Shown: one piece after another, positions 38,409 to 52,921 of the stretch
How positions within the stretch are numbered: position 1 is the first letter of the stretch
Layout of the letters: each line of letters starts with the position of its first letter
Virus record (IMG/VR): IMGVR_UViG_3300042402_003577
Location: 32,001 to 96,000 of that record
Source: a virus
DNA: 64,000 bases
Reading direction: 5' to 3' (one strand)
Made by a program: the position numbers and the translations under genes
The notes under the pieces: model-generated
Told to the model about the DNA's origin: nothing
Databases searched by the model: none
What the model saw: only the letters and a program-made list of their open reading frames with translations

Positions 38409-38594
38409 TCAAGAATTTTTTTTATAATCTAAATAAAATCCTATAGCCACAATTATATTCATCCCACAAGAAGCAGCTATCTCATGGACATCCTCATATA
38501 CATTCAAACTCAAATGAATATGGCCTATAGTCCAAAAAGGAATGGATAGGTTCTGTGACACCCAAATAATAAAATATTTTATAAACTCCTTCAT
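38409..38594 (-). CDS. Small membrane protein
   Basis: Hydrophobic segments. Confidence 0.5.
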   Translation of the reverse strand: MKEFIKYFIIWVSQNLSIPFWTIGHIHLSLNVYEDVHEIAASCGMNIIVAIGFYLDYKKNS

Positions 38595-38636
38595 ATTTTT
38601 AATTCCTATATAAAATAATCTTTTACAAAAAAAACT

Positions 38637-38993
38637 TTATTTTTGCTTATTAACTATTTCTATTAATTTTTTAAGACAAGCAAGTTCTGCCTCCTCATAA
38701 GAATTAAACCTCAAGTCTTCATCTTCTGAATGATATACATAATCATTTAAAATGATGTCATCAACTCTAATATACCAATGCGCAGGAGTACAAACATGTA
38801 AATCTATACAGCCAAACAAATTATACTTCTCTCTAAACCATCTAAATGCTTGTTGGTAAAGTGGTGCAATAGTATCTGTCTTATCCCAATCATTAAGTAT
38901 TCCTGTTGGCCCATACCAACCAAAACACGGTTCACTAAAACCAAGTTTTTCAAGAGCTAATGCTTGTTCGTGAGGTATAAATTCTTTTTCCAT
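38637..38993 (-). CDS. Hypothetical protein
   Basis: APLYQQAFRWFREK and YEEAELACL motifs; promoter box 39009-39016. Confidence 0.6.
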   Translation of the reverse strand: MEKEFIPHEQALALEKLGFSEPCFGWYGPTGILNDWDKTDTIAPLYQQAFRWFREKYNLFGCIDLHVCTPAHWYIRVDDIILNDYVYHSEDEDLRFNSYEEAELACLKKLIEIVNKQK

Positions 38994-39016
38994 ATAAATA
39001 ATTTTTTACAAAGATA

Positions 39017-40075
39017 CAAACTTTTATACAAATAGCAATAATTATTTTTCTATTAGAAAGAATTTATTTTTACACATTTATCACGCTTATTTTCAAAAAC
39101 CCCTCAACGAAGAAATGCGGGTTTCAGCGGGTCAAAAGTACAAAAATGTACACGAAAAGTACAAAAATGTACTTTCACCCTCTCGGAACCCTTGATTTTC
39201 CTAGGCACTTTTTTTAACGCTTCTTTAATTATTTATGTGCATGTTTTATCATCAACCAAACTCCCAAAAATCACCCCAATATTTTTTATTTTTTTCCACC
39301 CCTACCCCCCTAAAATTTTTTAGCCCCTACCCAAAAATCATCCCCCCCTAGTAGGCCAGAAAAATAACCCCCCCCTGTCTGAGGCGGAAAAATTGTATGA
39401 GGCTGAGAAATCGTGTGAAACTGAAAAGTGGGGTGTACTACATACTTAGCCCACCCACATAACCCAATTTTGAAATTCCCCCTCCTAAAAAACCAAAACT
39501 AGATTTGCCCATTAGCTAATATGAATTCTAGGGGAACTATCTCTAGGCTCGGGGCTATGGGCTAGGGGAACTAGTCTGTGGCTAGGTCTGTGGTCTGCTG
39601 GTCTGTGTGCTAGTCTCTCGGGCTAGGTCTCTAGGGTTGTCTGTCTGTCTTCTCTATCTATATATAAGTACTGCAATACATATAAGGGGGCTATCGGGTA
39701 GGGTAGGGGGTAGGGTCTGTACTTATAATGAATACATATATAAGGGCAAATAGGTAGGGGGCGGGTAGGTCGGCACACATACATAGATAAACATAGGGCG
39801 GATCGGGTAGCCAATAGCGGGAGGGGCTGGACAAAGTAGGCAAGCGGGTAACTATCGGGCGGAAAGTGCGGGTAAAATATCTAAGGGCGGAAAGTTTGAC
39901 CTCCATATTTGCCCCCTAAGCGATTATTTTCTGGTGGGTAAGGGTAAGTGTTGGATAGTAGGGGCTTCCTCGCCTATCCACCCATTTAAGCCTCCATACA
40001 TATCCGCACTCTGATACCTTATTTATAGCAAAATATACTTCGGGGAAACATTAGAAGCCTCCAAAAATAAATTCA
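39017..40075. other. Non-coding divergence region (origin or genome-end junction)
   Basis: Coding strand switches; C-runs change to G-runs near 39.5 kb; short direct repeats. Confidence 0.6.
39134..39172 (+). repeat. 18-bp direct repeat x2 (period 21)
   Basis: AAAAGTACAAAAATGTAC at 39134 and 39155. Confidence 0.9.
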
Positions 40076-40077
40076 TT

Positions 40078-40145
40078 TTGCAACAAAATTTAATTTCTTT
40101 GCAACAAAATTTATAACACATGGGTAGGGGGGTGCCGTATCTTTG
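40078..40145 (+). promoter_or_regulatory. Early promoter with tandem GCAACAAAA boxes
   Basis: Boxes at 40080 and 40101; TATCTTTG at 40138. Confidence 0.75.
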
Positions 40146-40213
40146 TTGTATAATTAGTAGCGAAGCTATTAAATATAATACACTAAAAATTAACAACTAT
40201 TAACAATTAAAAA

Positions 40214-40540
40214 ATGACAAAGACACAAAAATTTCAAATGCTAAAAAGCGGACAAATTCAAGCTACAAACTCTCATTTGCAGACTGTATACAATTTACTA
40301 CTTCAAGATTCTGAAACGCTAAGGGACCTAAAAGCGGAACTAAGCGAGGCAAAGTATAAGAACCTTTGCTATCAAGAACAAATTGATAGAGGTAGTAGAG
40401 ACCTATGGTATTTAGGGACAAGGGTACAAAATAGCCCTAAAGCCGTATATTACACTTCATTGTGGCTGGAGGCTTGCGATACTATAGCCAACGAACTAGG
40501 TTACACTTTTGACAGACACTTTTTAATTTCATCAAACTAA
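40214..40540 (+). CDS. Hypothetical early protein
   Basis: First ORF after promoter. Confidence 0.6.
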   Translation: MTKTQKFQMLKSGQIQATNSHLQTVYNLLLQDSETLRDLKAELSEAKYKNLCYQEQIDRGSRDLWYLGTRVQNSPKAVYYTSLWLEACDTIANELGYTFDRHFLISSN

Positions 40541-40553
40541 AAACATAAAAAAA

Positions 40554-40745
40554 ATGATAAAACATATAAAAACATACGCACCAATATATATAATCATTCT
40601 AGTAAGTCTATTTGTAGGCGCGTTTATAGAACAAGAAATAGTTAGATATAGACTAGATAAGTATATCAAAGAAAACAATATCAAGCTAGACAAAGACTTG
40701 ATAATGCACGGCAAAACATTTCACTACAGCGATTATTCACACTAA
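40554..40745 (+). CDS. Small membrane protein
   Basis: One TM; A-rich leader. Confidence 0.55.
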   Translation: MIKHIKTYAPIYIIILVSLFVGAFIEQEIVRYRLDKYIKENNIKLDKDLIMHGKTFHYSDYSH

Positions 40746-40778
40746 AAAAAATTAACTAACAAATAAAAATTTAAAAAA

Positions 40779-40994
40779 ATGAGCAAATATTACGAAATAG
40801 AAGGCTATTGGAAAGATGACAAAGTAGAATTTTCGGGAATAGTCAAGGAATACGATGACTACCTTGAAGAGGAGGATGACGATATTTTCTACTATGGTAT
40901 GGGAGAATCAGACCTAAAAGACGCTATAAATTCGGGAGACGATACTTGTCTAGACTTTGTAGTCACAAACTATAAAGAAACTATCTATCCATAA
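40779..40994 (+). CDS. Small acidic hypothetical protein
   Basis: A-rich leader repeat. Confidence 0.6.
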   Translation: MSKYYEIEGYWKDDKVEFSGIVKEYDDYLEEEDDDIFYYGMGESDLKDAINSGDDTCLDFVVTNYKETIYP

Positions 40995-41027
40995 AAAAAA
41001 TTAACTAACCAATTAAAATCATAAAAA

Positions 41028-41195
41028 ATGAACGCACAAAGAAACACACAAAAAACGCACGTTGCAAAATTACCTCAAAATGTAGGCTATTCAATCAAAG
41101 AGGGCTACACTATGGAGAAGTCAGAATACCACAAACTTCTAGAGGCACAAGGTAAAAAGATTGAATATACGCCTTTCGGTATTATCATTCACTAG
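41028..41195 (+). CDS. Hypothetical 55-aa protein, paralog of the N-terminus of 46727-47305
   Basis: MNAQRNTQKTHVAKLPQNVGYSIKEGYTMEKSEYHKLLEAQGKKIEYTPFGIIIH; AATCATAAAAAATG leader. Confidence 0.7.
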   Translation: MNAQRNTQKTHVAKLPQNVGYSIKEGYTMEKSEYHKLLEAQGKKIEYTPFGIIIH

Positions 41196-41196
41196 A

Positions 41197-41248
41197 GGTT
41201 AACTGAAGAGACTTAAATAGTCGAAACGTACTTCGGTACGTCTTAACC
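41197..41248 (+). ncRNA. Hammerhead ribozyme (type I)
   Basis: GGTTAA-CTGAAGA-GACT(TAAAT)AGTC-GAAA-CGTAC(TTCG)GTACG-TC-TTAACC: complete core and three stems. Confidence 0.92.
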
Positions 41249-41266
41249 AAAAAAAATTCATAAAAA

Positions 41267-41554
41267 ATGAGACAAGTAACAAAAGAAAGTATCAACGCAT
41301 TCAATAACAATTCACAAGGATCATTCGGGGGTAACACTAGAATAGTGGTAGACAATGAGGCTACAAAATTATACCTATTTGATAATCTAATTGCGGTAAA
41401 AGAAAATAACGTACTAAGAATATCAAACGCGGGGTGGGAAAGCAATACCACAAAGGAAAGGCTTAACGCACTATCGGGGGTAAACATTGTACAAAAAAAA
41501 GGAACGTGGTATTTGAACGGCAATGAGTGGAGCGGTGATTGGATAGCAATTTAA
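41267..41554 (+). CDS. Hypothetical early protein
   Basis: GW.S.TTKERLNAL motif of a widespread phage family. Confidence 0.65.
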   Translation: MRQVTKESINAFNNNSQGSFGGNTRIVVDNEATKLYLFDNLIAVKENNVLRISNAGWESNTTKERLNALSGVNIVQKKGTWYLNGNEWSGDWIAI

Positions 41555-41603
41555 GAAAAAAACTAAATATTTAAAAAAATAACAATTAAAAAAATCATAA
41601 AAA

Positions 41604-41936
41604 ATGAAAAAAATTAACTTTGCAGAAATTACATTAAGACTAGAACTTTCGTCAAGAGGCGGAGGAGTAGAAATTGACCTCACTACCTTAGGTTTCAAGG
41701 GCGAAAAAATGTCCGCCTATCAAAACTATCTAGGCGGGGGTATGCTGGGGGCTATAAGCGAGAATAACACAATAAACGCCTATGGAAAGGAGATTACCTC
41801 AAAAAAGCAATTAAAACTAGAAAAAATTGCAGAAGAATTGAAACGCTATTTTCACAACTTAACGAACCCCGAAGAGGAGGAGTGGGAAAGTGTTTCATAC
41901 GAACAAAACCAAAACTTACCAACAAGCGCATACTAA
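41604..41936 (+). CDS. Hypothetical early protein
   Basis: Leader repeat. Confidence 0.6.
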   Translation: MKKINFAEITLRLELSSRGGGVEIDLTTLGFKGEKMSAYQNYLGGGMLGAISENNTINAYGKEITSKKQLKLEKIAEELKRYFHNLTNPEEEEWESVSYEQNQNLPTSAY

Positions 41937-41955
41937 CCAATTAAAATTTAAAAAA

Positions 41956-42231
41956 ATGAGTAAATCATCATTATACACTATCAAAGTAGTAGAAGAAACC
42001 ATAAACAACTACCATAAAAGGGGTGGAGAAGTTATAGAAGTAGTAGAAGGTTCCTTAGGCTATGGAACTACAATATGTTTCGGAGAGGGGCTAAAAACCA
42101 CTATCATCCAGGAAGTTTATTTGAATTCCTGGAGTAGTGGGCACACTATTGTAAGCTACAATAAGTGCCCAAAAAAATACGAACTTATGCTAAAAAATTG
42201 GGAAGCTAGACAAGAGTTAGAAGAAAATTAA
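41956..42231 (+). CDS. Hypothetical early protein
   Basis: Start reassigned to ATG after A-rich leader; EGSLGYG and E.YLN.WSS motifs. Confidence 0.6.
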   Translation: MSKSSLYTIKVVEETINNYHKRGGEVIEVVEGSLGYGTTICFGEGLKTTIIQEVYLNSWSSGHTIVSYNKCPKKYELMLKNWEARQELEEN

Positions 42232-42254
42232 ATAACCACTAAAAACATAAAAAA

Positions 42255-42482
42255 ATGAGTAAAGTATCAAGTATCGACAAACTAAGAAATATGGTAGCGT
42301 GGGCAAACTACCAGCACGAGGGCTTCAATCAATTATTCAAAAGTATAAGCCAACTAGAAAAAGCCTATGACTTCTGCCAAAAGAACGGCTATGAATTCCT
42401 TGACTTTGAATACATGGAGGGTATGGAGGCAGAGGATGAAGAAAAATGTATTGACTTTCTGAAAGCAATAAAAATAATTTAA
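42255..42482 (+). CDS. Hypothetical early protein
   Basis: Leader repeat. Confidence 0.55.
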   Translation: MSKVSSIDKLRNMVAWANYQHEGFNQLFKSISQLEKAYDFCQKNGYEFLDFEYMEGMEAEDEEKCIDFLKAIKII

Positions 42483-42552
42483 TTAACCAACAATTAAGAA
42501 AAAAAACTATATCTTTGTATAAAATTTAATTAACCAATAAAATTCATAAAAA

Positions 42553-42816
42553 ATGACAAAAGAACAATTAAAAGCGGGAGACAAAGTAAAGGCAATAAAC
42601 CCATGCCTTATGAGAACTACTAAGGTAGAAACCCTAACTATCGGAAAGGAATATGAGATATTAGCTATTGAACTAGATGAGGACAAGGACTACATATCAA
42701 GAATACTTAATGAAGAATATGAGGAAGAATATAGTATCTTGATAATAGATGACCAAGGAGAAGAGCACCTCTTCCCGATTGAAGACTTAGAAACCTATTT
42801 TGACGTAGAAATTTAA
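42553..42816 (+). CDS. Hypothetical SH3-like small protein
   Basis: LTIGKEYE...IIDDQG; promoter TATCTTTG at 42510. Confidence 0.55.
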   Translation: MTKEQLKAGDKVKAINPCLMRTTKVETLTIGKEYEILAIELDEDKDYISRILNEEYEEEYSILIIDDQGEEHLFPIEDLETYFDVEI

Positions 42817-42843
42817 CTTATAAACCAATAAAATTCATAAAAA

Positions 42844-43029
42844 ATGAAAAACGTAAAAGAATTAAACAAAAACGAACTAGATCAATTAAAGTGGAACTAT
42901 TTTTATGACGAGGAAGTAGTCCAAAACAAGTATGACTATCCGCATGAAATATCTGATGAGGTTATCTTTGCTCATTACGAGCATGTAAGTTTTGTAGAGG
43001 AGGACTTTTTTTGCAATGTTAACCAATAA
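42844..43029 (+). CDS. Hypothetical early protein
   Basis: Leader identical to that of 42553. Confidence 0.6.
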   Translation: MKNVKELNKNELDQLKWNYFYDEEVVQNKYDYPHEISDEVIFAHYEHVSFVEEDFFCNVNQ

Positions 43030-43041
43030 AAATTTAAACAA

Positions 43042-43194
43042 ATGAGAATTCAAGCAATAAGAAAAAAACTAAAAAAGCACGGATATTTTGTCACGTTCTG
43101 TTTAAGCGGGAAATATATAGCAAGCAAGAACCAGCGAACCTATATATCCAAGACTTTGAATGGTATTTATAACCAAGTTTTTCGCAAACTTTAA
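43042..43194 (+). CDS. Small basic protein (50 aa)
   Basis: Hand translation MRIQAIRKKLKKHGYF...VFRKL. Confidence 0.5.
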   Translation: MRIQAIRKKLKKHGYFVTFCLSGKYIASKNQRTYISKTLNGIYNQVFRKL

Positions 43195-43227
43195 AAGCTA
43201 TTAAATTCACAAATTAAAACTAAAAAA

Positions 43228-43506
43228 ATGAGAATGACAAAGGACTATATACAAGGTTATTGCGATTCTATTATTCAAATGAATGAGGGTCTAGACTACT
43301 GCTTGAAAGTAAAAGCAAACGTACATATAACTTTCTTTGATACTATGGATATTACTATAAATTGGGTAGAAAGCTATGACCCAGTAACAAATGAGGAAAT
43401 TGGAGGGTATATGGTATTTTCAGATAGAAAAGATATTCAATCTTTGGGCTTTGACCTATCCAGCTTCCTTAATGACCAACTTTCAAAAATAAAACTAACG
43501 AAATGA
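43228..43506 (+). CDS. Hypothetical early protein
   Basis: A-rich leader. Confidence 0.55.
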   Translation: MRMTKDYIQGYCDSIIQMNEGLDYCLKVKANVHITFFDTMDITINWVESYDPVTNEEIGGYMVFSDRKDIQSLGFDLSSFLNDQLSKIKLTK

Positions 43507-43823
43507 TATACGAAAAAATTTTAAACATAAAAGATATAATAGCTACAAATTTCCTTACATTTGACGAGCAAATGGTTCCAGCATTAACCTTTGTCAATCC
43601 AAGCAAATACGATGAGAATATCCAAGAGTTTGACAACGTCTGTAAAAAAATAAACGATTCATTGAAATACGAAATTATTTGTGTGGATTCAGATAGTTTT
43701 GGAATGAAGTATAAATACGAAATAAAGCCCAATTACTACTACCTTAATGATAAAATTGCTTTTGTATCTAAGGAGTGGTCAATAGAGGAAATGGTAGGTA
43801 TTATAGAGGAAATAAATAAGTAA
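43503..43823 (+). CDS. Hypothetical early protein
   Basis: ATGA overlap. Confidence 0.55.
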   Translation: MIYEKILNIKDIIATNFLTFDEQMVPALTFVNPSKYDENIQEFDNVCKKINDSLKYEIICVDSDSFGMKYKYEIKPNYYYLNDKIAFVSKEWSIEEMVGIIEEINK

Positions 43824-43841
43824 CAATTAAACCATAAAAAA

Positions 43842-43982
43842 ATGATAGAAGCACTAAAAGAAACATTCGGGGAAGCACTACCCTTTGTATCAATTATATT
43901 ATTGGTATTTATATGGGTGGCAGGGTGCCTACTAATTGAAGACAAAATTTCAAACCTTTTTAAAAATTGCAACAAAACTTAA
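43842..43982 (+). CDS. Small membrane protein (46 aa)
   Basis: Hand translation; one TM; CATAAAAAAATG leader. Confidence 0.45.
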   Translation: MIEALKETFGEALPFVSIILLVFIWVAGCLLIEDKISNLFKNCNKT

Positions 43983-44033
43983 TAAAATTGCAACAAAATT
44001 GATAACTTTGGGGTACAACCTACCCTATCTTTG
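43967..44033 (+). promoter_or_regulatory. Early promoter with tandem GCAACAAAA boxes
   Basis: Boxes at 43969 and 43990; TATCTTTG at 44026. Confidence 0.75.
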
Positions 44034-44066
44034 CAGAACAATTTATAACAATTAAAATCATAAAAA

Positions 44067-44324
44067 ATGACAAACATTACAACAAAACAAGAAGAACAAG
44101 TAGAACAAGCAAAACAAATACTTAAAGACGCTGGATATTTTACAGACAATCTTTGGCATGTGGAAGACGTTAAGTCTAAATTTAATTGCACTGACGAAGA
44201 AGCTCAGAGTGTGCTATATAGTGCATTGACCAATGAAGCTACAATGGAGCAAATATGGTTCAGTATTAGAGAGTTTGGAGAAATGGAAGGATTAGAGGAA
44301 AATCTTGATGAATTAAACAATTAA
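44067..44324 (+). CDS. Hypothetical early protein
   Basis: W.VEDV......TDEEA..VL motif. Confidence 0.6.
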   Translation: MTNITTKQEEQVEQAKQILKDAGYFTDNLWHVEDVKSKFNCTDEEAQSVLYSALTNEATMEQIWFSIREFGEMEGLEENLDELNN

Positions 44325-44334
44325 AATCAAACCA

Positions 44335-44652
44335 ATGACAACAACAGAAAATAACAAATTATTAGCAGAGTTTATGGGGGTGCGTCATACCGATGATAGC
44401 AAATACCTAGAAACCTTAAAAGAAATGAAGTCAAATGGATTATACTTCGAGCAAGGGTATATGACTAGTGAACTACACTACTACACCGATTGGAATTGGC
44501 TTATGGAAGTAGTAGAAAAGATATTAGATATTTCTTTAAACTTAGATACTATGGAAATGTATTATAATATAACAGATAGTATTCCAAGAATAGATCATAC
44601 ATATAATGCTTGTGTAGAATTTGTACAATGGTATAACGAACAAAATAAATAA
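44335..44652 (+). CDS. ENNKL-family protein, copy 1
   Basis: ENNKL.AEF.G...DWNWL.EVV.K...Y...VEFV..YN. Confidence 0.65.
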   Translation: MTTTENNKLLAEFMGVRHTDDSKYLETLKEMKSNGLYFEQGYMTSELHYYTDWNWLMEVVEKILDISLNLDTMEMYYNITDSIPRIDHTYNACVEFVQWYNEQNK

Positions 44653-44674
44653 TTAACATTAAAAATCATAAAAA

Positions 44675-45034
44675 ATGAACACAACAGAAAATAACAAATT
44701 GATAGCTGAATTTATGGGGTTTAAATTACAACAAGACCCCAATGAAAGGTGGTTTGGGCAATACTTTACTACTCCAAATGATGTATGGGCAAATAGAATT
44801 GAACTTCTGCATTTTGACACAGATTGGAATTGGCTTATGGAAGTAGTGGAAAAGATTGAGGATATTGAAACCATAGATGTAGATATTCTTACAAATGGTA
44901 CGAGAATATATGAATGGAGAAGTGGGGGCAGAGTTATTGCAGATAATTGTGCAAATATTTCTTTTGATAAAAAGATAGAACATACATACGATTCTGTGGT
45001 AGAATTTGTACAATGGTATAATAAAAATAAATAA
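44675..45034 (+). CDS. ENNKL-family protein, copy 2
   Basis: Same three motifs. Confidence 0.65.
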   Translation: MNTTENNKLIAEFMGFKLQQDPNERWFGQYFTTPNDVWANRIELLHFDTDWNWLMEVVEKIEDIETIDVDILTNGTRIYEWRSGGRVIADNCANISFDKKIEHTYDSVVEFVQWYNKNK

Positions 45035-45056
45035 TTAACACTAAAAATCATAAAAA

Positions 45057-45476
45057 ATGACAAAAATAGAATTAAACGTAGGATTAAAAATAGGTACTTT
45101 AGGTATTCTAGACTTTAACAAAACAAAGGCAAGGATTCTTGAATTATATAGTAGCCTACAGGCTGATGATTCAGAGATTTATTTTCAGTATCAAGAGGGA
45201 AAGTATCTAAGCGATGGAATAACACAGACAGAACCTACTATGGTGGTGGAGTTATTTGTAGCTTATAGGGAAGATATTGCAGAAGCATTATTAAACACAA
45301 CAAAGATACTTTGCAAGGAGACTTTTCAAGAGTGCATAGCGTTATTTATAACCTTTCTACATTCAGACCCTAAAGGAGTGCTGGTATACAATGAAAATTA
45401 TAGAGGTACTTTCCAAGACTTTGATATGCAGTATTTTTTACCATACAAAAGCCATGTTATCCAATATAACTATTAA
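45057..45476 (+). CDS. Hypothetical early protein
   Basis: EPT.V...Q.CIA motif; leader repeat. Confidence 0.6.
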   Translation: MTKIELNVGLKIGTLGILDFNKTKARILELYSSLQADDSEIYFQYQEGKYLSDGITQTEPTMVVELFVAYREDIAEALLNTTKILCKETFQECIALFITFLHSDPKGVLVYNENYRGTFQDFDMQYFLPYKSHVIQYNY

Positions 45477-45513
45477 CCAAAAGAACTTAATATAGCAAAA
45501 ATTTAAACAATAT

Positions 45514-45846
45514 ATGAAAAAAGAAGAATTTAAAATAGCAGTTCAAAATTCAACCTCTATGGTTTGGATGAATATGGTAGACGAACAACTATATAGAATT
45601 GTAGGAGTAAATAAAAGCACTTTTGACGATGAAAATTGGAGTGATAAACCTATCCATATTCTTTATGTAGTAGAAGAAGAGTCTGGCTTATCCGTCACCA
45701 TAAAAGATGAGAATGTTTTTCTTTGTGAAATATCACTAGCTAAAAAATCTTCCCATAAGACTAGAAGGAGATCTGTGTTGAATAAAGAAACAGCCAAAAC
45801 AGATGAAAGTATTGCTCCTAGTTCAAATAAAATTTCTAACAATTAA
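45514..45846 (+). CDS. Hypothetical early protein
   Basis: Operon packing. Confidence 0.5.
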   Translation: MKKEEFKIAVQNSTSMVWMNMVDEQLYRIVGVNKSTFDDENWSDKPIHILYVVEEESGLSVTIKDENVFLCEISLAKKSSHKTRRRSVLNKETAKTDESIAPSSNKISNN

Positions 45847-45857
45847 AATCATAAAAA

Positions 45858-46037
45858 ATGGAAAAAAGAAATTTAGTTTTAAAAGCAGTTATGGAATATT
45901 GCAATGGTTTAGTTCCATTAAGAGTGGCTATGCAAGAAGACATGGATACCCTTTTAGTTAACCTTGAAGATATATTATCCGAGCATAACATTACAGAGGA
46001 AGAAATAGAAGATATAATTATAGACTTAGTTAAATAA
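45858..46037 (+). CDS. Small acidic protein (59 aa)
   Basis: Hand translation MEKRNLVLKAVMEYC...; leader repeat. Confidence 0.55.
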   Translation: MEKRNLVLKAVMEYCNGLVPLRVAMQEDMDTLLVNLEDILSEHNITEEEIEDIIIDLVK

Positions 46038-46043
46038 AAAAAT

Positions 46044-46394
46044 ATGAAAAACATTAAAGAAAAATTTGAAGCATTAAAAAACAAAATGGAATTATATGAC
46101 TTGTTTCAGCACGATGATGAAGTAGGTCAAGCACTTATTGAACTCGAAAGAGAAATCCTAAGCCCCGAGTATGTATATAATATTGCCTTTGGGAGTTCAT
46201 TGTGTAAGTCTATTGATGAATACGATTACGCAGAATGTGCTAGACTGATTGAAGCAAATAATGGAGATATTATAGGCTATAATAGATTAGAGGATGACGT
46301 TGAAGAATTATTACAACATTCAGTTAGTGCAGGGGAGTATTTTATTGTAGACAATGAAGAATTGAAAAAAATTAACTTATTATTAAACAATTAA
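46044..46394 (+). CDS. Hypothetical acidic protein
   Basis: Operon packing. Confidence 0.55.
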   Translation: MKNIKEKFEALKNKMELYDLFQHDDEVGQALIELEREILSPEYVYNIAFGSSLCKSIDEYDYAECARLIEANNGDIIGYNRLEDDVEELLQHSVSAGEYFIVDNEELKKINLLLNN

Positions 46395-46406
46395 AAATCA
46401 TAAAAA

Positions 46407-46700
46407 ATGACAAGAACAGAAAATAACAAATTATTGGCCGAATTTTTAGGCTACACACAACCACATCCCGATTATCCTCACACAACGTATTGGTACAAAG
46501 AAGGAGAGGCACCTTTAACTATGCTATCCTTTGACACCGATTGGAATTGGTTAGTGGAAGTAGTAAAAAAATGCTACCTATTAGACACATCTACAGGAGC
46601 ACATTACGAAGCTATTTATTACTCCTTTGCTGACTTAGATATTAAAAAGACTTACAACGCTTGTGTAGAGTTTGTAAAACATTATAACGAAAAAAAATAA
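46407..46700 (+). CDS. ENNKL-family protein, copy 3
   Basis: Same three motifs. Confidence 0.65.
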   Translation: MTRTENNKLLAEFLGYTQPHPDYPHTTYWYKEGEAPLTMLSFDTDWNWLVEVVKKCYLLDTSTGAHYEAIYYSFADLDIKKTYNACVEFVKHYNEKK

Positions 46701-46726
46701 ATAATTAACATTAAAAATCATAAAAA

Positions 46727-47305
46727 ATGCACAAATTAGTAAAAAACGCAGATTATACCTTACAAGAAACAAATGTAGGGGAATTACCAAAAAATATGGG
46801 TTACTCCAATAATGGGGGTTATACCATGGATAGGTCAGAGTATCATTATCTATTGGAAATGCAAAATAAGTTTGCCCAGCAGACCGAAAATGGTATTATT
46901 ATCCACGATATAGCAGAGCCTATGGCTACCAATATCAAAGAATATTCTTATTTAATTAAGAAGACCGAAAAAACTATTGAATTATTAGAAAAAATAATTG
47001 ATGGCATAGAAAAATACCCTTCTTTGGAAAGATGTAATACCATAGTGTATTATAAAGAGACTGGTATTTCTGTAGGAGTGGACAAAGAAAAAAAACCCTT
47101 TTTGCAAATTGTATCAGAGCCTACCCAATTTACAAGTGAGAAAGCAGAAGAAATTTGTACAAAAGTTACAAACGGACACGGAGATCATCCTATAATGGGT
47201 AGCAAACTACAATATAGTGAGGATTTTTTGGCACTATGTAAAAAAGATTTATCAAATTTTCATCTAATTAAAAAAGCAATTATAAATAATGTGGTATGTT
47301 ATTAG
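46727..47305 (+). CDS. Hypothetical protein (N-terminus paralogous to 41028-41195)
   Basis: LP.N.GYS...GYTM..SEYH.LLE.Q......GIIIH. Confidence 0.6.
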   Translation: MHKLVKNADYTLQETNVGELPKNMGYSNNGGYTMDRSEYHYLLEMQNKFAQQTENGIIIHDIAEPMATNIKEYSYLIKKTEKTIELLEKIIDGIEKYPSLERCNTIVYYKETGISVGVDKEKKPFLQIVSEPTQFTSEKAEEICTKVTNGHGDHPIMGSKLQYSEDFLALCKKDLSNFHLIKKAIINNVVCY

Positions 47306-47464
47306 GCTTATGTATGATATTCATTATATTCTTGATAGCTTGTATATTCTCCAAGCTATCAAAATAGTGAGAAAAAATTTAAACAAATTAAAGAAAAAAT
47401 GATGGTATTTTCCATAAACCCTTTTTGGATTTACATATCATAATTATTAACCAAAAAAAACAAT

Positions 47465-47764
47465 ATGAAAAAACAATTTATAGATTACAATAGCAATATT
47501 GAAAAGATTAGAACCAGTATTTTGAAAGAATGCTCTGAAATTATGAAGGAGGATAGTAGAATCCTTGTAAGTGAAGAGGATGAAGTATCCATAATAGTAA
47601 TAGGAGACTGCTATTCCCCCGAAGTAGTAGTGGAGATAGAGAAGCGGGGAGAGGCCATTATTATTTTAACCGAGGATGAGGTAGAGTCAAACCTAGCCGA
47701 TCTAGAAACCGATGATATGGTGGCAATTTACGAATATATTTATTCCATATTTATAACTAAATAA
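47465..47764 (+). CDS. Hypothetical acidic protein
   Basis: ORF track. Confidence 0.55.
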   Translation: MKKQFIDYNSNIEKIRTSILKECSEIMKEDSRILVSEEDEVSIIVIGDCYSPEVVVEIEKRGEAIIILTEDEVESNLADLETDDMVAIYEYIYSIFITK

Positions 47765-47776
47765 TAAATTAAAATT

Positions 47777-47989
47777 ATGAATCAAGAATTAGCAAGAGTA
47801 GTTGGCTACATAATGTACAACCAATTATTAGAAGAAAAAATAAATGGTAGCTTTTTTCAACAAATAGATCTGGCTATCACGATTGCAGAAAAATTTATTT
47901 TCATATATCCCGAAGACCATAAATGGGAAGACGAGGATTTAGATTGGGATGAATCTATTGAGAAATTTGTAACAACATATATTAACTAA
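47777..47989 (+). CDS. Hypothetical protein
   Basis: ORF track. Confidence 0.55.
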   Translation: MNQELARVVGYIMYNQLLEEKINGSFFQQIDLAITIAEKFIFIYPEDHKWEDEDLDWDESIEKFVTTYIN

Positions 47990-48006
47990 AAATAAAATAA
48001 ATAAAA

Positions 48007-48237
48007 ATGACAACTAAAATATTAACAGACGGAAACACAAATGTAATTCAATTAGGTAACTATGTATTCATCCAGCATAAAAAAAGAGTGGTGCATTGTG
48101 AACCCAAAGCATCTTTCAACTTTAATGGATTTGTAGAGGTTAATGGCCTTGACACCGAGCATTTTTCAAATAAATGCCAAGCATACCTATTAAAATTCCA
48201 AGAGGAAGATATTTATAACGCTATTTTCAACAAATAA
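48007..48237 (+). CDS. Hypothetical protein
   Basis: ORF track. Confidence 0.55.
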   Translation: MTTKILTDGNTNVIQLGNYVFIQHKKRVVHCEPKASFNFNGFVEVNGLDTEHFSNKCQAYLLKFQEEDIYNAIFNK

Positions 48238-48245
48238 TAAACTCT

Positions 48246-48440
48246 ATGCTTAAATTTATATTAAAAAAGTTTGGATTCAGACTAATAGAAGAAAAAACAT
48301 ATAAGGCAGTTAAACGATCTCTTACATATTGCTATGCAAGTATAAACTTTGAATATAAAGGCCTAAGTACCTTTGAAAAAAAGATTCTGAGCAGGTCTGA
48401 CTTTAAAGAATTGACAAAAATTGCAAAAGACGTAGAATAA
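48246..48440 (+). CDS. Hypothetical protein
   Basis: ORF track. Confidence 0.5.
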   Translation: MLKFILKKFGFRLIEEKTYKAVKRSLTYCYASINFEYKGLSTFEKKILSRSDFKELTKIAKDVE

Positions 48441-48441
48441 A

Positions 48442-48509
48442 TTTCAACAAAAATTAAAGTAATTGCAACAAAATTGATACCTGATACCTTTAAACTAGTA
48501 CTATCTTTG
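48442..48509 (+). promoter_or_regulatory. Early promoter with tandem (G/T)CAACAAAA boxes
   Basis: Boxes at 48444 and 48465; TATCTTTG at 48502. Confidence 0.75.
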
Positions 48510-48534
48510 CACTATAATTATTAAACTAAAAAAA

Positions 48535-48861
48535 ATGAATAAAGTAACAATAAACATTCCATTAGATACTACAAAATTAGATGCCACTTCTGTTTCTGAA
48601 AAACTAATAGCTAATTCTAACTTTGATGTAAAAAGATTCACAATTAAAAATAATGTATATAGAAAAACTTTCTCTTCTATGTTTGTTGCAGAACTTTTAG
48701 TAATAGATCCTAAATTTGATACCATACTAGAAGATGTGCAGGCCGATTATATTCTGGTGGCAGAAAGTGAAGATGGATCTTATACTTTGTCTTTAAATAA
48801 AGAAAAAGGTATCAAGGCATCAGATTGTGATATAAATAAATTTTATTATTTATTAGATTAA
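48535..48861 (+). CDS. Hypothetical protein
   Basis: First ORF after promoter. Confidence 0.55.
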   Translation: MNKVTINIPLDTTKLDATSVSEKLIANSNFDVKRFTIKNNVYRKTFSSMFVAELLVIDPKFDTILEDVQADYILVAESEDGSYTLSLNKEKGIKASDCDINKFYYLLD

Positions 48862-48898
48862 AAATTATTTAATATACCCCTAAAAAAATACAAGAATT

Positions 48899-49105
48899 AT
48901 GTTATTAACAGAAGAAAAAATAGATCGCTCTAAAATTACTGATATTTCTATCAATGGAATAGATTATTCAGATTATCCCGATTTTTGTGATGCTTATATT
49001 GAAGAGGCTACCTATAATGGTATTCCGCTAAATGAGGATCAATTAGATGAATTGAACGAAGATAGGGATTTTGTGTATGATAAAGTAATGAATTTTTTAT
49101 TTTAA
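48899..49105 (+). CDS. Conserved phage hypothetical protein
   Basis: GID..DYPDFCDAYI..A...G..L...QLDELN motif. Confidence 0.65.
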   Translation: MLLTEEKIDRSKITDISINGIDYSDYPDFCDAYIEEATYNGIPLNEDQLDELNEDRDFVYDKVMNFLF

Positions 49106-49130
49106 TAATCTTATAAATTAAATAAAAGTT

Positions 49131-49526
49131 ATGAAAAAAATAACAACATTAATATTGATGATGATAGCCATATCATCATATTCACAAATGGTTAAGACAA
49201 AACATGGCTGGGATTATTACTCCAAAACATATTTATTTCAAGAATATGGGGAAAAGGCTTTATATTTTAATAGGCCTTCAAAATTATCATTCAACGAAAA
49301 TGACAATGGGTTAATGATAATATACACAAATGGACAAACAGAGACCTTCCATTTGACACAGGTTCACCCAATATTTACATCAGAAACGGATGGAGGCCAT
49401 AAATACGATGTGCATGAAATGTTAAACTATGCAACATATACTGGGCTGTATCTTCAAATTATATTTTCAGAAAAAGTGGTAATAAGATTCTTTTTCCAAA
49501 ATGGATTTAGAGAATATTCATATTAA
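49131..49526 (+). CDS. Secreted protein
   Basis: Bacteroidota-style signal peptide MKK...SYSQ. Confidence 0.6.
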   Translation: MKKITTLILMMIAISSYSQMVKTKHGWDYYSKTYLFQEYGEKALYFNRPSKLSFNENDNGLMIIYTNGQTETFHLTQVHPIFTSETDGGHKYDVHEMLNYATYTGLYLQIIFSEKVVIRFFFQNGFREYSY

Positions 49527-49548
49527 CTTAATAAAAAAATTAATTGAA

Positions 49549-49731
49549 ATGACCCCAAGAGAAAAAGCAGAAGAGTTATATAGTAGTTTTTGGATAAATA
49601 GGCATCTAGAAGAATCTAATGAAATAGCTAAAAAATTTTCATTAATAGCCGTTGAAGAAATATTAAATAGTTGCAAAACCTACTTATCCCCTTATTATTT
49701 AGAAGTTAAAAAAGAAATAAATAAAATATGA
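49549..49731 (+). CDS. Hypothetical protein (MTP.EKA.EL family)
   Basis: Paralog of 37831-38040; start reassigned. Confidence 0.6.
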   Translation: MTPREKAEELYSSFWINRHLEESNEIAKKFSLIAVEEILNSCKTYLSPYYLEVKKEINKI

Positions 49732-50066
49732 CACCTAAACAAGAATATGAAGAAATTGCTGAAATAGATTTAACAAAACTTTGCTATTACGATAAAAGAA
49801 ATCCTGATTTTCAAATAAAAGAAGAATATGGTTATGACAAAGAAGAGGTTGAATCTACAGGAAATTTTTCTAAAAAAGATTGTGCTTGTGATAATTGTTT
49901 TTATGGTAGGAGCAAGTTAACAGAACAACTTATTTGGCAACAAGACAAGAATAAGTATAGTGAGGAAGATATGCAAGAGTATGCAGAGTTTTGTATTAGA
50001 TGTTATCAAAAAGAATTGCCTTGTATAATAGCTAAAGATTGGTTTGAACAATTTAAAAAGAAATAA
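49728..50066 (+). CDS. Hypothetical protein
   Basis: CACDNCFYG; YSEEDM...WFEQFKKK tail. Confidence 0.55.
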   Translation: MTPKQEYEEIAEIDLTKLCYYDKRNPDFQIKEEYGYDKEEVESTGNFSKKDCACDNCFYGRSKLTEQLIWQQDKNKYSEEDMQEYAEFCIRCYQKELPCIIAKDWFEQFKKK

Positions 50067-50067
50067 T

Positions 50068-50319
50068 ATGAAAAGCACAAAAGAAAAAAATTTTTTATAT
50101 CTTTCTGAAATTTTAAGTTCTAGACTTTATAATAGATTAAGCACTTGTTTATTATGTAAAATAAAAGATATAGAACATAAGTATCATGAATGGACATTAG
50201 AAGATTTATTATTAATTGATGAAACCGAATTAAAAGGATTAAGAAATGTGGGAATAGTATCCTTTAATGAATTTATTTATTGGAAACACGAAGCAAAACA
50301 ACTAAAAAATAATATATGA
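50068..50319 (+). CDS. Stand-alone RNA polymerase alpha-CTD-like protein
   Basis: LSSRLYNRL...TLEDLL.....EL..LRNVG..S..E matches the alpha-CTD HhH consensus. Confidence 0.65.
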   Translation: MKSTKEKNFLYLSEILSSRLYNRLSTCLLCKIKDIEHKYHEWTLEDLLLIDETELKGLRNVGIVSFNEFIYWKHEAKQLKNNI

Positions 50320-50519
50320 AAAATAAACAAATGACTGCAATAGAATGGTTAGAAGAAAAATTAAGTATAAAAGTATTATTGTCGGCCACATTGATAGTTT
50401 TACTTATGTATTTACCCCCAATATTTTTTGAATATACCAAAGCAAAGAATAAGACGGAAGTAATTGATACTCATAACGAGGGAGATCAGATAAAAAAAGT
50501 ATACTCTCTAAAAAAATAA
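50316..50519 (+). CDS. Small membrane protein
   Basis: TAIEWL motif plus TM. Confidence 0.5.
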   Translation: MKNKQMTAIEWLEEKLSIKVLLSATLIVLLMYLPPIFFEYTKAKNKTEVIDTHNEGDQIKKVYSLKK

Positions 50520-50559
50520 CCAGTATAATTAAATATTAACAATTTAAAAAATTAAAAAG

Positions 50560-50766
50560 ATGAAAGAACCAAATTTAACAAATCCAATTGATCTAAAATT
50601 AGCGGAATTGGTGGCTAGAAAAAAAGCTAAAAGTATTAATAACGATAGTGTTGACTTAAATAAATTATGGCCTAGTACATTATCTTCCAATACTAGGGGG
50701 GGATTTACCGCTACAGGGGGTAATTATGCTTCTATAGTAAAAGTAGATAGAAACTATAACGGCTAA
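50560..50766 (+). CDS. Hypothetical protein
   Basis: ORF track. Confidence 0.5.
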   Translation: MKEPNLTNPIDLKLAELVARKKAKSINNDSVDLNKLWPSTLSSNTRGGFTATGGNYASIVKVDRNYNG

Positions 50767-50852
50767 TTATAATCTTTAAAATAATTTTTATTGAAAATAA
50801 AATCAATTCGTTTAAAAAATAATTATTAATTTTGCACTTAAATTTAAAAGAT

Positions 50853-51032
50853 ATGTTACAAAGAATAATAAAAAAAGTATTTCCAAAAACTCACACCAGA
50901 ATTTTTGATGAAGGGTATCTAAAGGCAGAGAAAGATGCAAAGACCCGCAAACTAACTAAGGATCAACAAAATTGGTACTATTGGGAACAAGAAAGACAAA
51001 GAGAAATAGCCATGAGAGATGGCGAAGAGTAA
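50853..51032 (+). CDS. Hypothetical protein
   Basis: Start moved to ATG downstream of TAATTTTG box (50827). Confidence 0.5.
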   Translation: MLQRIIKKVFPKTHTRIFDEGYLKAEKDAKTRKLTKDQQNWYYWEQERQREIAMRDGEE

Positions 51033-51059
51033 AATATTTAAACTAAAAAATTATAAATT

Positions 51060-51209
51060 ATGATACATATAGTATTTAAAATAAATAAACAAGATGTTTT
51101 CAGTAAAGGTAAAACATACGAAGGCAATGTTTGCGATGCTTACCGCCAATGGGAAATAGAATTTCCAGATGCAACATTTATAGGCTTATACCCTCATAAT
51201 AAAAACTAA
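51060..51209 (+). CDS. Small hypothetical protein (49 aa)
   Basis: Hand translation MIHIVFKINKQDVFSKGK...; fills gap. Confidence 0.45.
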   Translation: MIHIVFKINKQDVFSKGKTYEGNVCDAYRQWEIEFPDATFIGLYPHNKN

Positions 51210-51212
51210 TTT

Positions 51213-51851
51213 ATGAAATTATCTTTAAATAAAACCAGATTGTACTATTATGATAGTGAATCACTTACTTTCAAAAAAGGTAAGTGGGTTAATGGGCTAT
51301 ATGTATCTTTTTTATTAAATATACTAATAATAGCTGGCTTACTTTCTAACAATGTTTCGGTAAATATGAAATATGCCAATATGTTAAATATTTTGAAGCA
51401 AAAAGAAAAAACTATTAAGCACTTAGAAGTGAAAAGCCAAGATAGTGCTACCGAATATGCTGATTTCAGGAGAAGTTTGCCTCTTAAATTAACATTAAGC
51501 GAAGAAAAAAGATTGAATCATTTGTACTTTACCTACAAAAGTTTGATAAATAAACATCATTGTCCTCATAATTTATTATGGTATATTGCATTTAAAGAAT
51601 CAAGATTAAACTTAAATGCTAAAAATTCTAGTTCTTCTGCTCAGGGCATGTTTCAATTTATAAACGGAACTTGGAACGCTATGTGTAAGAGAGGTGGAAT
51701 GGATGTTTTAAATAGATATTCTGAAGAAAAACAAGTAAAAATTATGTGCATTTATCTTGACTATCTTTTTGATAAGTATAAAAACTGGCAACTAGTACAT
51801 AAAGAATATACTGGGGGAGTTATCTTATATAAATTACCCTACTACAAATAA
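51213..51851 (+). CDS. Membrane-anchored lytic transglycosylase (SLT)
   Basis: TM plus ESRLN..AKN..SSAQGMFQFI..TW. Confidence 0.8.
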   Translation: MKLSLNKTRLYYYDSESLTFKKGKWVNGLYVSFLLNILIIAGLLSNNVSVNMKYANMLNILKQKEKTIKHLEVKSQDSATEYADFRRSLPLKLTLSEEKRLNHLYFTYKSLINKHHCPHNLLWYIAFKESRLNLNAKNSSSSAQGMFQFINGTWNAMCKRGGMDVLNRYSEEKQVKIMCIYLDYLFDKYKNWQLVHKEYTGGVILYKLPYYK

Positions 51852-51871
51852 TAAATACAAACAAACCTATT

Positions 51872-52921
51872 ATGAGCACCCAATCAACACAAACCAAAGA
51901 TAGTATGCAAGATGTAGAATTTGATTTAGAAAGACTTTCTGCTGAAATAGATCAAGAGTTTCAAAAAACTCATACTAAATACACAGATAGTGCTGGATCA
52001 ATCTACAATTCATATTCCGAACTATTATTGGAGAATAAAAACTTAATGGCAGATTCCTTTTTAAAGGAATGCAAAGCAGTACTATCCAATGCAAAGAAGG
52101 ACTTAATTGAAGAGATTAGTAAGGGGAGGTCTGTAATACAAATAACTCAAAACAACCGCACAATTGAGATCAATGTAGATCACATGGCTCATCCACTTTA
52201 TGAGACTGCATTAAAAAGTCTTTTGCTATCTAAAAAACTTATGTTAGTAGGGCCTGCTGGTACAGGCAAAACTTATATGGTGCAGGAATTTGCCAAATCA
52301 CTAAATTTACCTTTTTACAAATATTCTTGTTCAAGAGATAGTTCAGTTCACGACTTAATAGGATATAAACAACCTGCGTCAGAAACATATTTACAAACTA
52401 CCTTTTTAAATTGTTACGAGAATGGAGGAATATTCTTAGTGGATGAATATGACGCTATGAGTGGGGATATGTCTCTATTCTTTAATGGAGTGGCAGATAA
52501 TTCAAAGTCTATTTCTGTGCCTCATAGAGACAACAATCCTAATGCCTTGAAGCACCCTGATTTTTATATTGTAATGTGTGGTAATACTTGGGGTAATGGA
52601 TCACAAGATTTCTCAGGAAGAGATTTTCAGGATATGGCTTTAATGGATAGATTTAGATTATCTAAATTATTTGTAAACTACCATCAACCCTTAGAAACTT
52701 TCTTGTGTGAATCAACCATGGTTTCTTATAAAGAGGTATTACTTTTAAGAGAATGTTTAGAACAGATAGGTTCCTATCTTTCAACTCGTAATATAGAAGA
52801 TATTTGTATTATGGTAAAATCAGGGTTAAGCTATAATGCTTGTGTACTAACTTTACTTTCAAGTATGGAAGAGTCTGATAGGCAAAATTTACTTTCTAAA
52901 TTAAATATTGATGCTCAATAG
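51872..52921 (+). CDS. MoxR/CobS-like AAA+ ATPase
   Basis: GPAGTGKT, LVDEYD, HPDF, GNT.G.G, D.A..DRF. Confidence 0.85.
   Translation: MSTQSTQTKDSMQDVEFDLERLSAEIDQEFQKTHTKYTDSAGSIYNSYSELLLENKNLMADSFLKECKAVLSNAKKDLIEEISKGRSVIQITQNNRTIEINVDHMAHPLYETALKSLLLSKKLMLVGPAGTGKTYMVQEFAKSLNLPFYKYSCSRDSSVHDLIGYKQPASETYLQTTFLNCYENGGIFLVDEYDAMSGDMSLFFNGVADNSKSISVPHRDNNPNALKHPDFYIVMCGNTWGNGSQDFSGRDFQDMALMDRFRLSKLFVNYHQPLETFLCESTMVSYKEVLLLRECLEQIGSYLSTRNIEDICIMVKSGLSYNACVLTLLSSMEESDRQNLLSKLNIDAQ

Follow-up and report, generated by a model that had tools for sequence, protein, structure and literature searches.

The window analyzed here (64,000 nucleotides, bases 32001-96000 of a 105,849-bp IMG/VR virus record that is rated 100% complete) carries a type I hammerhead ribozyme in the gap between two small genes that are encoded on the same strand. 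Comparison with related sequences confirms the element as genuine and evolutionarily conserved, and self-cleavage is predicted. We consider it likely that this ribozyme is functional and that, being located in the first rightward operon of a crAss-like phage of ~106 kb, it cuts its own message in the middle, which would uncouple the two halves of the operon. This reading builds on the anatomy of the element, on the covariation within its family, on its placement, and on the operon context; cleavage in vivo would set the RNA ends and might affect stability or translation. Taken alone, the motif makes a case for a hammerhead that is suggestive but not conclusive. Its identity is settled because comparative evidence exists, both from orthologous copies and from covariation in the family.

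Anatomy and predicted fold of the ribozyme

The features of the ribozyme and its surroundings are listed in Table 1. From position 41197 onwards, the DNA reads GGTTAA, CTGAAGA, GACT-TAAAT-AGTC, GAAA (41223-41226), CGTAC-TTCG-GTACG (41227-41240), T41241, C41242, and TTAACC (41243-41248). The core matches the hammerhead consensus without deviation (C3 U4 G5 A6 N7 G8 A9, then G12 A13 A14, with C at H17). Both junction-closing pairs are present, G10.1-C11.1 as G41210-C41222 and A15.1-U16.1 as A41226-U41241. A preliminary description of this DNA, which had been made from the sequence alone, reported the stems, the core, the cUUCGg loop, and a GTC triplet as a full hammerhead consensus; sequence and fold bear out this anatomy in every detail. 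The cleavage position that it predicted, after C41242, follows from the application of the hammerhead numbering to the sequence. The distances given there hold as well: the motif begins 1 nt after the stop codon of the 55-aa ORF (TAG at 41193-41195) and, in agreement with the ORF list, the predicted cut is 24 nt ahead of the ATG at 41267.

When a 67-nt RNA is folded in isolation, the hammerhead junction is both the MFE and the centroid structure (-13.8 kcal/mol, 43% of the ensemble). Stems I, II, and III have 6, 4, and 6 bp in this fold and meet as a three-way junction. The fold z-score of the isolated RNA is modest (-1.9). The topology is that of type I: stem I is open and both RNA ends exit there, while UAAAU and UUCG cap stems II and III, respectively. 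To cleave fast at physiological Mg2+, natural hammerheads need stem I and loop II to make a tertiary contact. Stem I of the window copy is devoid of an internal loop, and no pseudoknot was found. The copy has A(-1), A(+1), and A(+2) as well as a loop II of the type U-N-A-N-U; as conserved flanking residues and a conserved loop signature, these are candidates, but only candidates, for the elements that might make such a contact.

The cUUCGg hairpin was also considered as an intrinsic terminator. This was rejected, as the hairpin is followed by an A-run, not by a U-run, and as a terminator scan reports none at this place.

Table 1. Features of the ribozyme-bearing region (window positions)
Feature	Position	Strand	Basis or remark
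Promoter-like region: two GCAACAAAA boxes, 21 bp apart, and a -7 box TATCTTTG	40080-40145	+	Consensus match
Upstream 55-aa ORF, function unassigned	41028-41195	+	Last gene of the predicted 5' cleavage product
Predicted competitor segment (coding region)	41134-41142	+	Pairs with 41192-41200 (stop codon and 5' strand of stem I) in a 9-bp helix that would compete with stem I (241-nt fold)
Extended hammerhead: ribozyme plus family-conserved A(-1) and AA(+1/+2)	41196-41250	+	Family profile
Type I hammerhead ribozyme, 52 nt	41197-41248	+	Sequence read directly
Stem I, 5' strand GGUUAA	41197-41202	+	Pairs with 41243-41248
Catalytic core strand C3-A9, CUGAAGA	41203-41209	+	Sequence
Stem II GACU/AGUC including G10.1-C11.1, loop II UAAAU	41210-41222	+	Fold and covariation
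G12 A13 A14 and stem III (A15.1-U16.1 plus CGUAC/GUACG), cUUCGg tetraloop	41223-41241	+	Sequence, fold
C17, predicted scissile bond C41242/U41243	41242	+	Hammerhead numbering applied to the sequence
Stem I, 3' strand UUAACC, and A-rich leader without Shine-Dalgarno motif	41243-41266	+	Predicted 24-nt 5' end of the downstream product
Downstream 95-aa ORF, Pfam PF23790 Kyano_Gp96 / phrog_554, function unassigned	41267-41554	+	First gene of the predicted 3' product

Orthologous copies and covariation

Three related loci (L082, L083, and L084) share the upstream 55-aa gene or its neighborhood, and each has a hammerhead at the corresponding place. The homologues of the 55-aa ORF in L082 and L083 show 87-89% sequence identity, and each is followed by a hammerhead. 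In these orthologous copies the core is unchanged, stem III is fully compensated (CGUAC/GUACG, CGCC/GGCG, and CGCU/AGCG), and the loops differ. Stem II also differs in the copy from L084, again with compensation.

A covariance model (R1), built from six copies in relatives, finds 125 copies in 92 sources (E up to 1e-4). In the resulting alignment, which is fitted to the model and in which the search pattern had fixed stem I and parts of the core in most rows, 99.9% of the cells pair, 10 of the 13 pairs show changes on both sides, and double-sided changes number 236, compared to 43+-6 in shuffles. Pairing goes down to 20-40% of the cells in controls with slid partners. Stem II has 36-50 double-sided changes per pair. 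The junction-closing pairs are kept nearly throughout (G10.1-C11.1 in 112 of 114 rows, A15.1-U16.1 in 114 of 114). The family also has 18 distinct copies which fall outside the search pattern. In these, C3, G5, A6, G8, and A9 are invariant and U4 is replaced by C in two, and stem I covaries (GUUGCU/AGCAAC, GGCACA/UGUGUC, GGUCUA/UAGAUC, GAUUAA/UUAAUC, and others).

Near homologues of phrog_554, the model gives 15 confident matches (E up to 0.004), all of them on the gene strand. The ribozyme might be linked specifically to the Kyano_Gp96/phrog_554 gene, but this was rejected, since adjacency is seen only in loci which were found via that gene and never in loci ascertained by the pattern, and since the flanking proteins belong to 173 clusters.

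A subclass with GGUUAA/UUAACC as stem I

IMG/VR was scanned with the pattern GGTTAACTGANGA..CGAAA..TTAACC. Among the matches listed, at least 120 IMG/VR stretches carry a type I subclass with stem I GGUUAA/UUAACC. A strict descriptor identified 175 copies in the loci examined, which are reduced to 171 when overlapping matches are merged; 158 copies are non-redundant. Stem I has exactly 6 bp in 150 of these 158 copies, and they are flanked by A at -1 (94%), +1 (99%), and +2 (82%). Loop II reads U-N-A-N-U in the 117 copies having a 5-nt loop. Stem III varies from 3 to 14 pairs and is often capped by a stable tetraloop (UUCG, GUGA, or GCAA). At position H17, 125 copies have C, 48 have A, and 2 have U.

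The placement relative to genes is also regular. For 143 non-redundant copies there is a nearby upstream ORF, which in 126 cases has its stop codon inside the ribozyme or no more than 6 nt ahead of it. These are equally divided between stop codons inside the ribozyme (63; UAA of GGUUAA, UGA of CUGA, or UAA of loop II) and stop codons 0-6 nt upstream (63). The next ATG is 10-19 nt past the ribozyme in 102 of the 153 copies having a downstream ORF. The window copy fits every rule of the family, with a stop distance of +1 nt, an ATG at 18 nt, A(-1), AA(+1/+2), and the loop UAAAU. The host loci are mostly without Shine-Dalgarno motifs (median 0% of ORFs), a scarcity which would fit Bacteroidota-type hosts. 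The same stem I is found in phages of 31-61% GC and beside 173 clusters of flanking proteins.

Several side observations were made on this family. Natural core variants occur (L067:799-849, L084:3526-3577; L119:7281-7330, L096:647-696); an extra U is located between A9 and G10.1 in up to 23 of the 175 copies, and U4 is changed to C in two. A protein family (199-318 aa, no Pfam match) is encoded directly upstream of the hammerhead in 17 loci, frequently ending with a stop codon that falls within GGUUAA. Its members include L093:2717-3622, L113:386-1228, and L152:10085-11041 (- strand), with 14 more, and it is the only strongly recurrent flanking family among the 173 clusters. Locus L152 (- strand) has a second conserved block of ~35 nt (AAAAGACAGGTGCAGTCTATAACAGGCAC...) between ribozyme and ATG, at six or more genes, which may be an additional structured element.

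A description of the subclass was not found in the text of the literature, which is weak evidence, as sequence alignments in PDF files are unsearchable. A string search of the literature with the sequence of stem I and core led only to siRNA papers, which are unrelated.

Scoring by Rfam and search for further ribozymes

The preliminary description had suggested that the element be searched with the Rfam hammerhead models. Such a search gave a match to RF00163 but with a score of 28.5 bits, whereas the gathering score is 34; the E-value is 2.8e-6 when the 105.8-kb genome is searched. No other Rfam family matches the ribozyme better, and the RF00163 match is full-length over positions 1-45 (E 0.0016 when 14.5 kb are compared to all families). 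The gathering threshold is a cut-off for annotation and not a biochemical criterion. The shortfall arises because the longer stem III gets aligned as an insertion. When the window is scanned at the gathering threshold, no Rfam match is returned, and the ribozyme is found in E-value mode only. A gathering-threshold scan of the loci from seven relatives, with about a dozen clear hammerheads, matched none of them. These dozen hammerheads of the subclass (from L082, L083, L084, L042, L146, L151, and L104) score 47-74 bits with the model built from the relatives. With a score under the cut-off, the subclass is therefore missed by routine annotation. As it is widespread (at least 120 IMG/VR stretches among the matches listed), phage hammerheads are under-annotated.

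The 105.8-kb genome has no second hammerhead of any type (RF00163, model R1, and types II and III were searched). Searches of the whole genome with hammerhead types II and III and model R1 revealed no further ribozyme. When region 38500-53000 was compared to all Rfam families (E up to 1), no other ribozyme was detected. The window shows no enrichment of a loose core pattern (6 matches compared to 13.9 expected).

Phage genome and operon context

The portal, terminase, and major head proteins match PHROG families with the corresponding annotations (portal, large terminase, and major head protein). By its terminase, the closest named phage is Cellulophaga phage phi14:2 (crAss-like, order Crassvirales), with 34% sequence identity; this phage has no RF00163 match. 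A blastn search of region 40000-43000 against GenBank phages returned no match. The source is a crAss-like phage of an uncultured host that probably belongs to the Bacteroidota.

GC content is ~30%. The coding strand flips near 40000, and a run of small ORFs on the + strand starts at 40214. The 55-aa ORF upstream of the ribozyme has no Pfam or PHROG match. Three promoter-like regions were detected on the + strand (40080-40145, 43969-44033, and 48444-48509), compared to 0.01 matches expected. Each comprises two GCAACAAAA boxes spaced by 21 bp (boxes at 40080, 43969, and 48444) and, about 30 bp later, a -7 box TATCTTTG (at 40138, 44026, and 48502, respectively). A fourth TATCTTTG at 42510 is devoid of GCAACAAAA boxes. 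The -7 box consensus is of the Bacteroidota type, and all promoter assignments are consensus matches.

Region 40080-40145 is, on this basis, the probable start of the ribozyme-bearing transcript. From 40145 up to the ribozyme, a terminator scan of the + strand detected no terminator-like site. Because there is a promoter-like site upstream and no terminator-like site in between, the ribozyme would be located ~1 kb into the first rightward transcription unit. It occupies a mid-operon position, with four small ORFs preceding it and four more until the next -7 box is reached. We infer that the flanking genes are early genes.

A shared leader and exchange of gene cassettes

The 3' strand of stem I together with its 3' flank (TTAACCAAAAAAAATTCATAAAAAATG) represents one copy of a leader that precedes ~20 neighboring genes which have no ribozyme. 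This leader, T(T/A)AAC(C/A)A(A/T)T(A/T)AAA(A/T)TCATAAAAAATG, is found at a fixed position (-23/-24) ahead of ~20 small ORFs on the + strand between 40190 and 47470. An exact CATAAAAAATG occurs 11 times from 41020 to 46729, always on the + strand. When one mismatch is permitted, the observed count of matches is reached by none of 100 shuffles. An example of a ribozyme-less leader is TTAACCAATAAAATTCATAAAAAATG ahead of 42553. As the leader starts at the 3' strand of stem I, the predicted cut would yield an RNA that starts with the first base of the leader block. The same leader is used by ~20 neighbor genes without a ribozyme, and expression from it thus does not need cleavage.

On other contigs with ribozymes, 87 of 467 TTAACC occurrences outside of ribozymes are located 8-26 nt ahead of the start of an ORF, compared to 9 of 251 for the reverse complement; the former count includes some ribozymes that were missed by the strict descriptor. 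The proposition that UUAACC is always part of a generic leader was rejected. It holds in this phage and in L088, L091, and L099 but fails in L095, L109, and L042. The absence of the generic leader from the latter three indicates that the pattern is lineage-specific.

Homology to L082 and L083 extends over the 55-aa gene, the ribozyme, the leader, and the ATG. It breaks at 41279 and resumes at the leader of the next gene (41588 compared to L082, 41533 compared to L083). The gene after the ribozyme is swapped: the window has the Kyano_Gp96 gene, L082 has a 79-aa gene followed by a second hammerhead, and L083 has an 80-aa gene. The swapped segment covers 41280-41587 in the window, L082:3250-3464, and L083:1886-2093, with breakpoints that fall at the leaders. 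The ribozyme itself combines the left flank of copy a from L082 with the body of copy b from L082 (97% identity over 78 nt). Breakpoints and hybrid copy would fit a cassette exchange at the repeats provided by ribozymes and leaders.

A broader proposal can be made from these observations, which we put forward tentatively and consider rather unlikely as a whole. Hammerhead and A-rich leader might form an exchangeable "stop-cut-start" module in phages whose hosts do not rely on Shine-Dalgarno motifs. The 5' end of this module would supply or abut the stop codon of the upstream gene, and the cut would define a leader of ~16-26 nt. The ribozyme-less UUAACC leader would then have spread to ~20 early genes, stem I would owe its fixation to the function of the leader in translation no less than to catalysis, and the ribozyme would be a natural insulator that makes shuffled cassettes independent of their context. 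If the insulator reading were true, it would explain why hammerheads cluster in the fast-shuffling accessory regions of phage genomes.

Proposed self-processing and alternative explanations

Self-processing of a polycistronic message, as put forward in the preliminary description, is the natural reading and is supported, because a covarying hammerhead lies on the coding strand within a run of genes on the same strand, with a promoter-like site upstream and no terminator-like site in between. Cleavage in vivo is predicted, and it may shift stability or translation. The ribozyme would be transcribed as part of the polycistronic RNA and, upon closure of stem I, cut this RNA between C41242 and U41243. 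The 5' product would cover the four small upstream genes and, with the ribozyme still folded, terminate in a 2',3'-cyclic phosphate. Stem I, being weak, AU-rich, and of 6 bp, would then melt and release the 3' product. This product should begin with the 24-nt A-rich leader UUAACCAAAAAAAAUUCAUAAAAA, bearing a 5'-OH, and continue into the AUG of the Kyano_Gp96-family gene and the later genes. As a net effect, the two halves of the operon would be uncoupled in decay and folding, and the downstream gene would gain a standard leader that is independent of its context (an insulator-like role).

The predicted gain in accessibility of the start site upon cleavage is small (from 0.61 to 0.72 for the window copy, from 0.61 to 0.68 as the family mean). 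Across the family it is significant (p about 1e-8, in a comparison without a specific control), and we treat this modeled gain as weak evidence. In Bacillus, the 5'-OH product of the glmS ribozyme is destabilized by RNase J1. Conversely, a 5'-OH shields RNA from RNase E where this enzyme depends on the 5' end. The direction in which the stability of the 5'-OH RNA would change thus depends on the RNases of the host.

It is very unlikely that the element is an inactive relic or a chance look-alike, such as a pair of hairpins without a catalytic role. One might argue for this from the Rfam score below the gathering score, the unenriched loose core pattern in the window, and the sole copy in the genome. 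Such an explanation is at odds with a core without deviation, with compensation in the orthologues, with covariation throughout the family, and with the shared signatures of flanks and loop II. More is to be said for the view that the ribozyme mainly serves as a junction between mobile gene cassettes or travels with them as a passenger, its repeats providing homology for gene swaps and any cleavage being incidental, since homology breaks just after the ATG (41279), each relative has a different gene there, the window copy combines parts of two L082 copies, and the same stem I spans phages across the GC range and the 173 flanking-protein clusters given above. Nevertheless, we consider this view unlikely. 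Recombination would work without an intact core. The core, G10.1-C11.1, and A15.1-U16.1 are nonetheless conserved amid freely varying stems, a pattern which means that selection acts on catalysis. Furthermore, the borders of other cassettes are marked equally well by leaders without a ribozyme. A role in cassette exchange and a catalytic role are not exclusive.

Cleavage might instead be conditional. An upstream helix would block stem I unless it is melted by ribosomes on the 55-aa ORF, so that cleavage would report translation. The competitor helix (Table 1) replaces stem I in both the MFE and the centroid structure of a 241-nt fold, and the probability of stem I is 0.05 in its -100/+30 context compared to 0.90 in isolation. 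As the stop codon is located family-wide within the 5' end of the ribozyme or directly at it, terminating ribosomes must also contact the ribozyme. However, a low probability of stem I in context is general in the family (median 0.18) and probably reflects a weak AU-rich stem and a folding model that ignores tertiary contacts. The competitor lies in a coding sequence to which the only relatives are ~89% identical, which makes its conservation uninformative, and the alternative helix is without covariation support. On this balance, conditional cleavage is quite improbable. We give practically no weight to an action in trans, in which the ribozyme, though a single copy, would cleave the UUAACC-type leaders that precede ~20 other early genes. 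It is true that the generic leaders begin with (U)UAACC and thus match the stem I arm of the ribozyme. Stem III, however, is a hairpin closed by cUUCGg on its own strand, and no target could bind there without displacing it. There is no enrichment of sites resembling GUACGU-H-UWAACC (69 compared to 65 expected with up to 3 mismatches), and the sole exact site of this type is that of the ribozyme itself. Trans-cleavage of the generic leaders was thus rejected, given the closed stem III and the lack of an excess of matching sites. Self-processing in cis remains the reading that we prefer.

Comparison with known systems

Hammerheads that flank genes in phages and prophages have been reported, and processing of polycistronic RNA has been proposed for them (Perreault et al., 2011; PMC3088659). 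In the HF2 virus, a hammerhead is located 13 nt before the start codon of an early gene, and the mapped 5' end of the transcript lies within 3 nt of the cleavage site (PMC3088659). According to a review from 2019 (PMC6765202), the role of phage hammerheads is still unproven. Self-cleaving ribozymes are abundant in phages but without proven function, and the window copy is a convenient test case, with its canonical core and its single copy in a complete genome. The operon has a promoter-like site and is split into two halves of four genes each, and the ribozyme-less leaders provide a built-in control. Relatives with one or two copies and with swapped cassettes widen the comparison.

The window copy shares the core, the three-way junction, and the open stem I with the type I hammerheads of bacteria, prophages, and phages (PMC3088659; RF00163, clan CL00010). 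As in phage type I hammerheads, it is intergenic and on the coding strand, and it is likewise proposed to process a polycistronic RNA. Helix III is longer than in the type I forms of eukaryotic retroelements. Compared to the members of RF00163, the subclass of the window copy falls under the gathering cut-off and is distinguished by a nearly fixed GGUUAA/UUAACC, by flanking A residues, and by the U-N-A-N-U loop II.

Prophage hammerheads may be clustered and flank single genes (Perreault et al., 2011, Figure 3). A similar arrangement is found in the relative L082, where two copies bracket the 79-aa gene. Clusters also occur elsewhere in the subclass, with 3-5 pattern matches within 1-2 kb in L088, L099, L151, and L159; L152 has 3 pattern matches and 7 copies by the strict descriptor. 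In contrast to this clustered, gene-flanking type, this genome has a single copy that brackets no gene; it would split the operon in two and not excise a single gene.

The HHphage element of haloviruses HF1 and HF2 resembles the window copy in that it is located a few nucleotides before a start codon in the early region. HHphage differs by having core insertions, by its need for high salt, and by being positioned at the head of a transcript in an archaeal virus, whereas the window copy has a canonical core and a mid-operon position. The RAGATH-1 variant (RF03152) aligns weakly over the core and the stems (20.5 bits compared to a cut-off of 56.3; E 0.29), and its upstream hairpin is not credibly present; the window copy is not a member of that family.

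RiboJ, said to go back to Lou and colleagues in 2012, is reportedly an engineered insulator that derives from a type III hammerhead of a satellite RNA and is placed before a ribosome-binding site. It is also said to carry an added hairpin that exposes the Shine-Dalgarno site. In both RiboJ and the window, a hammerhead acting in cis would trim variable upstream RNA and leave the same short leader; for the window copy, an insulating role is putative.

The regularities of the subclass and the blind spot of Rfam are useful but incremental results. Intergenic type I hammerheads of phages have been known since 2011; compared to these, the window copy adds a clean new example but does not represent a new kind of element.
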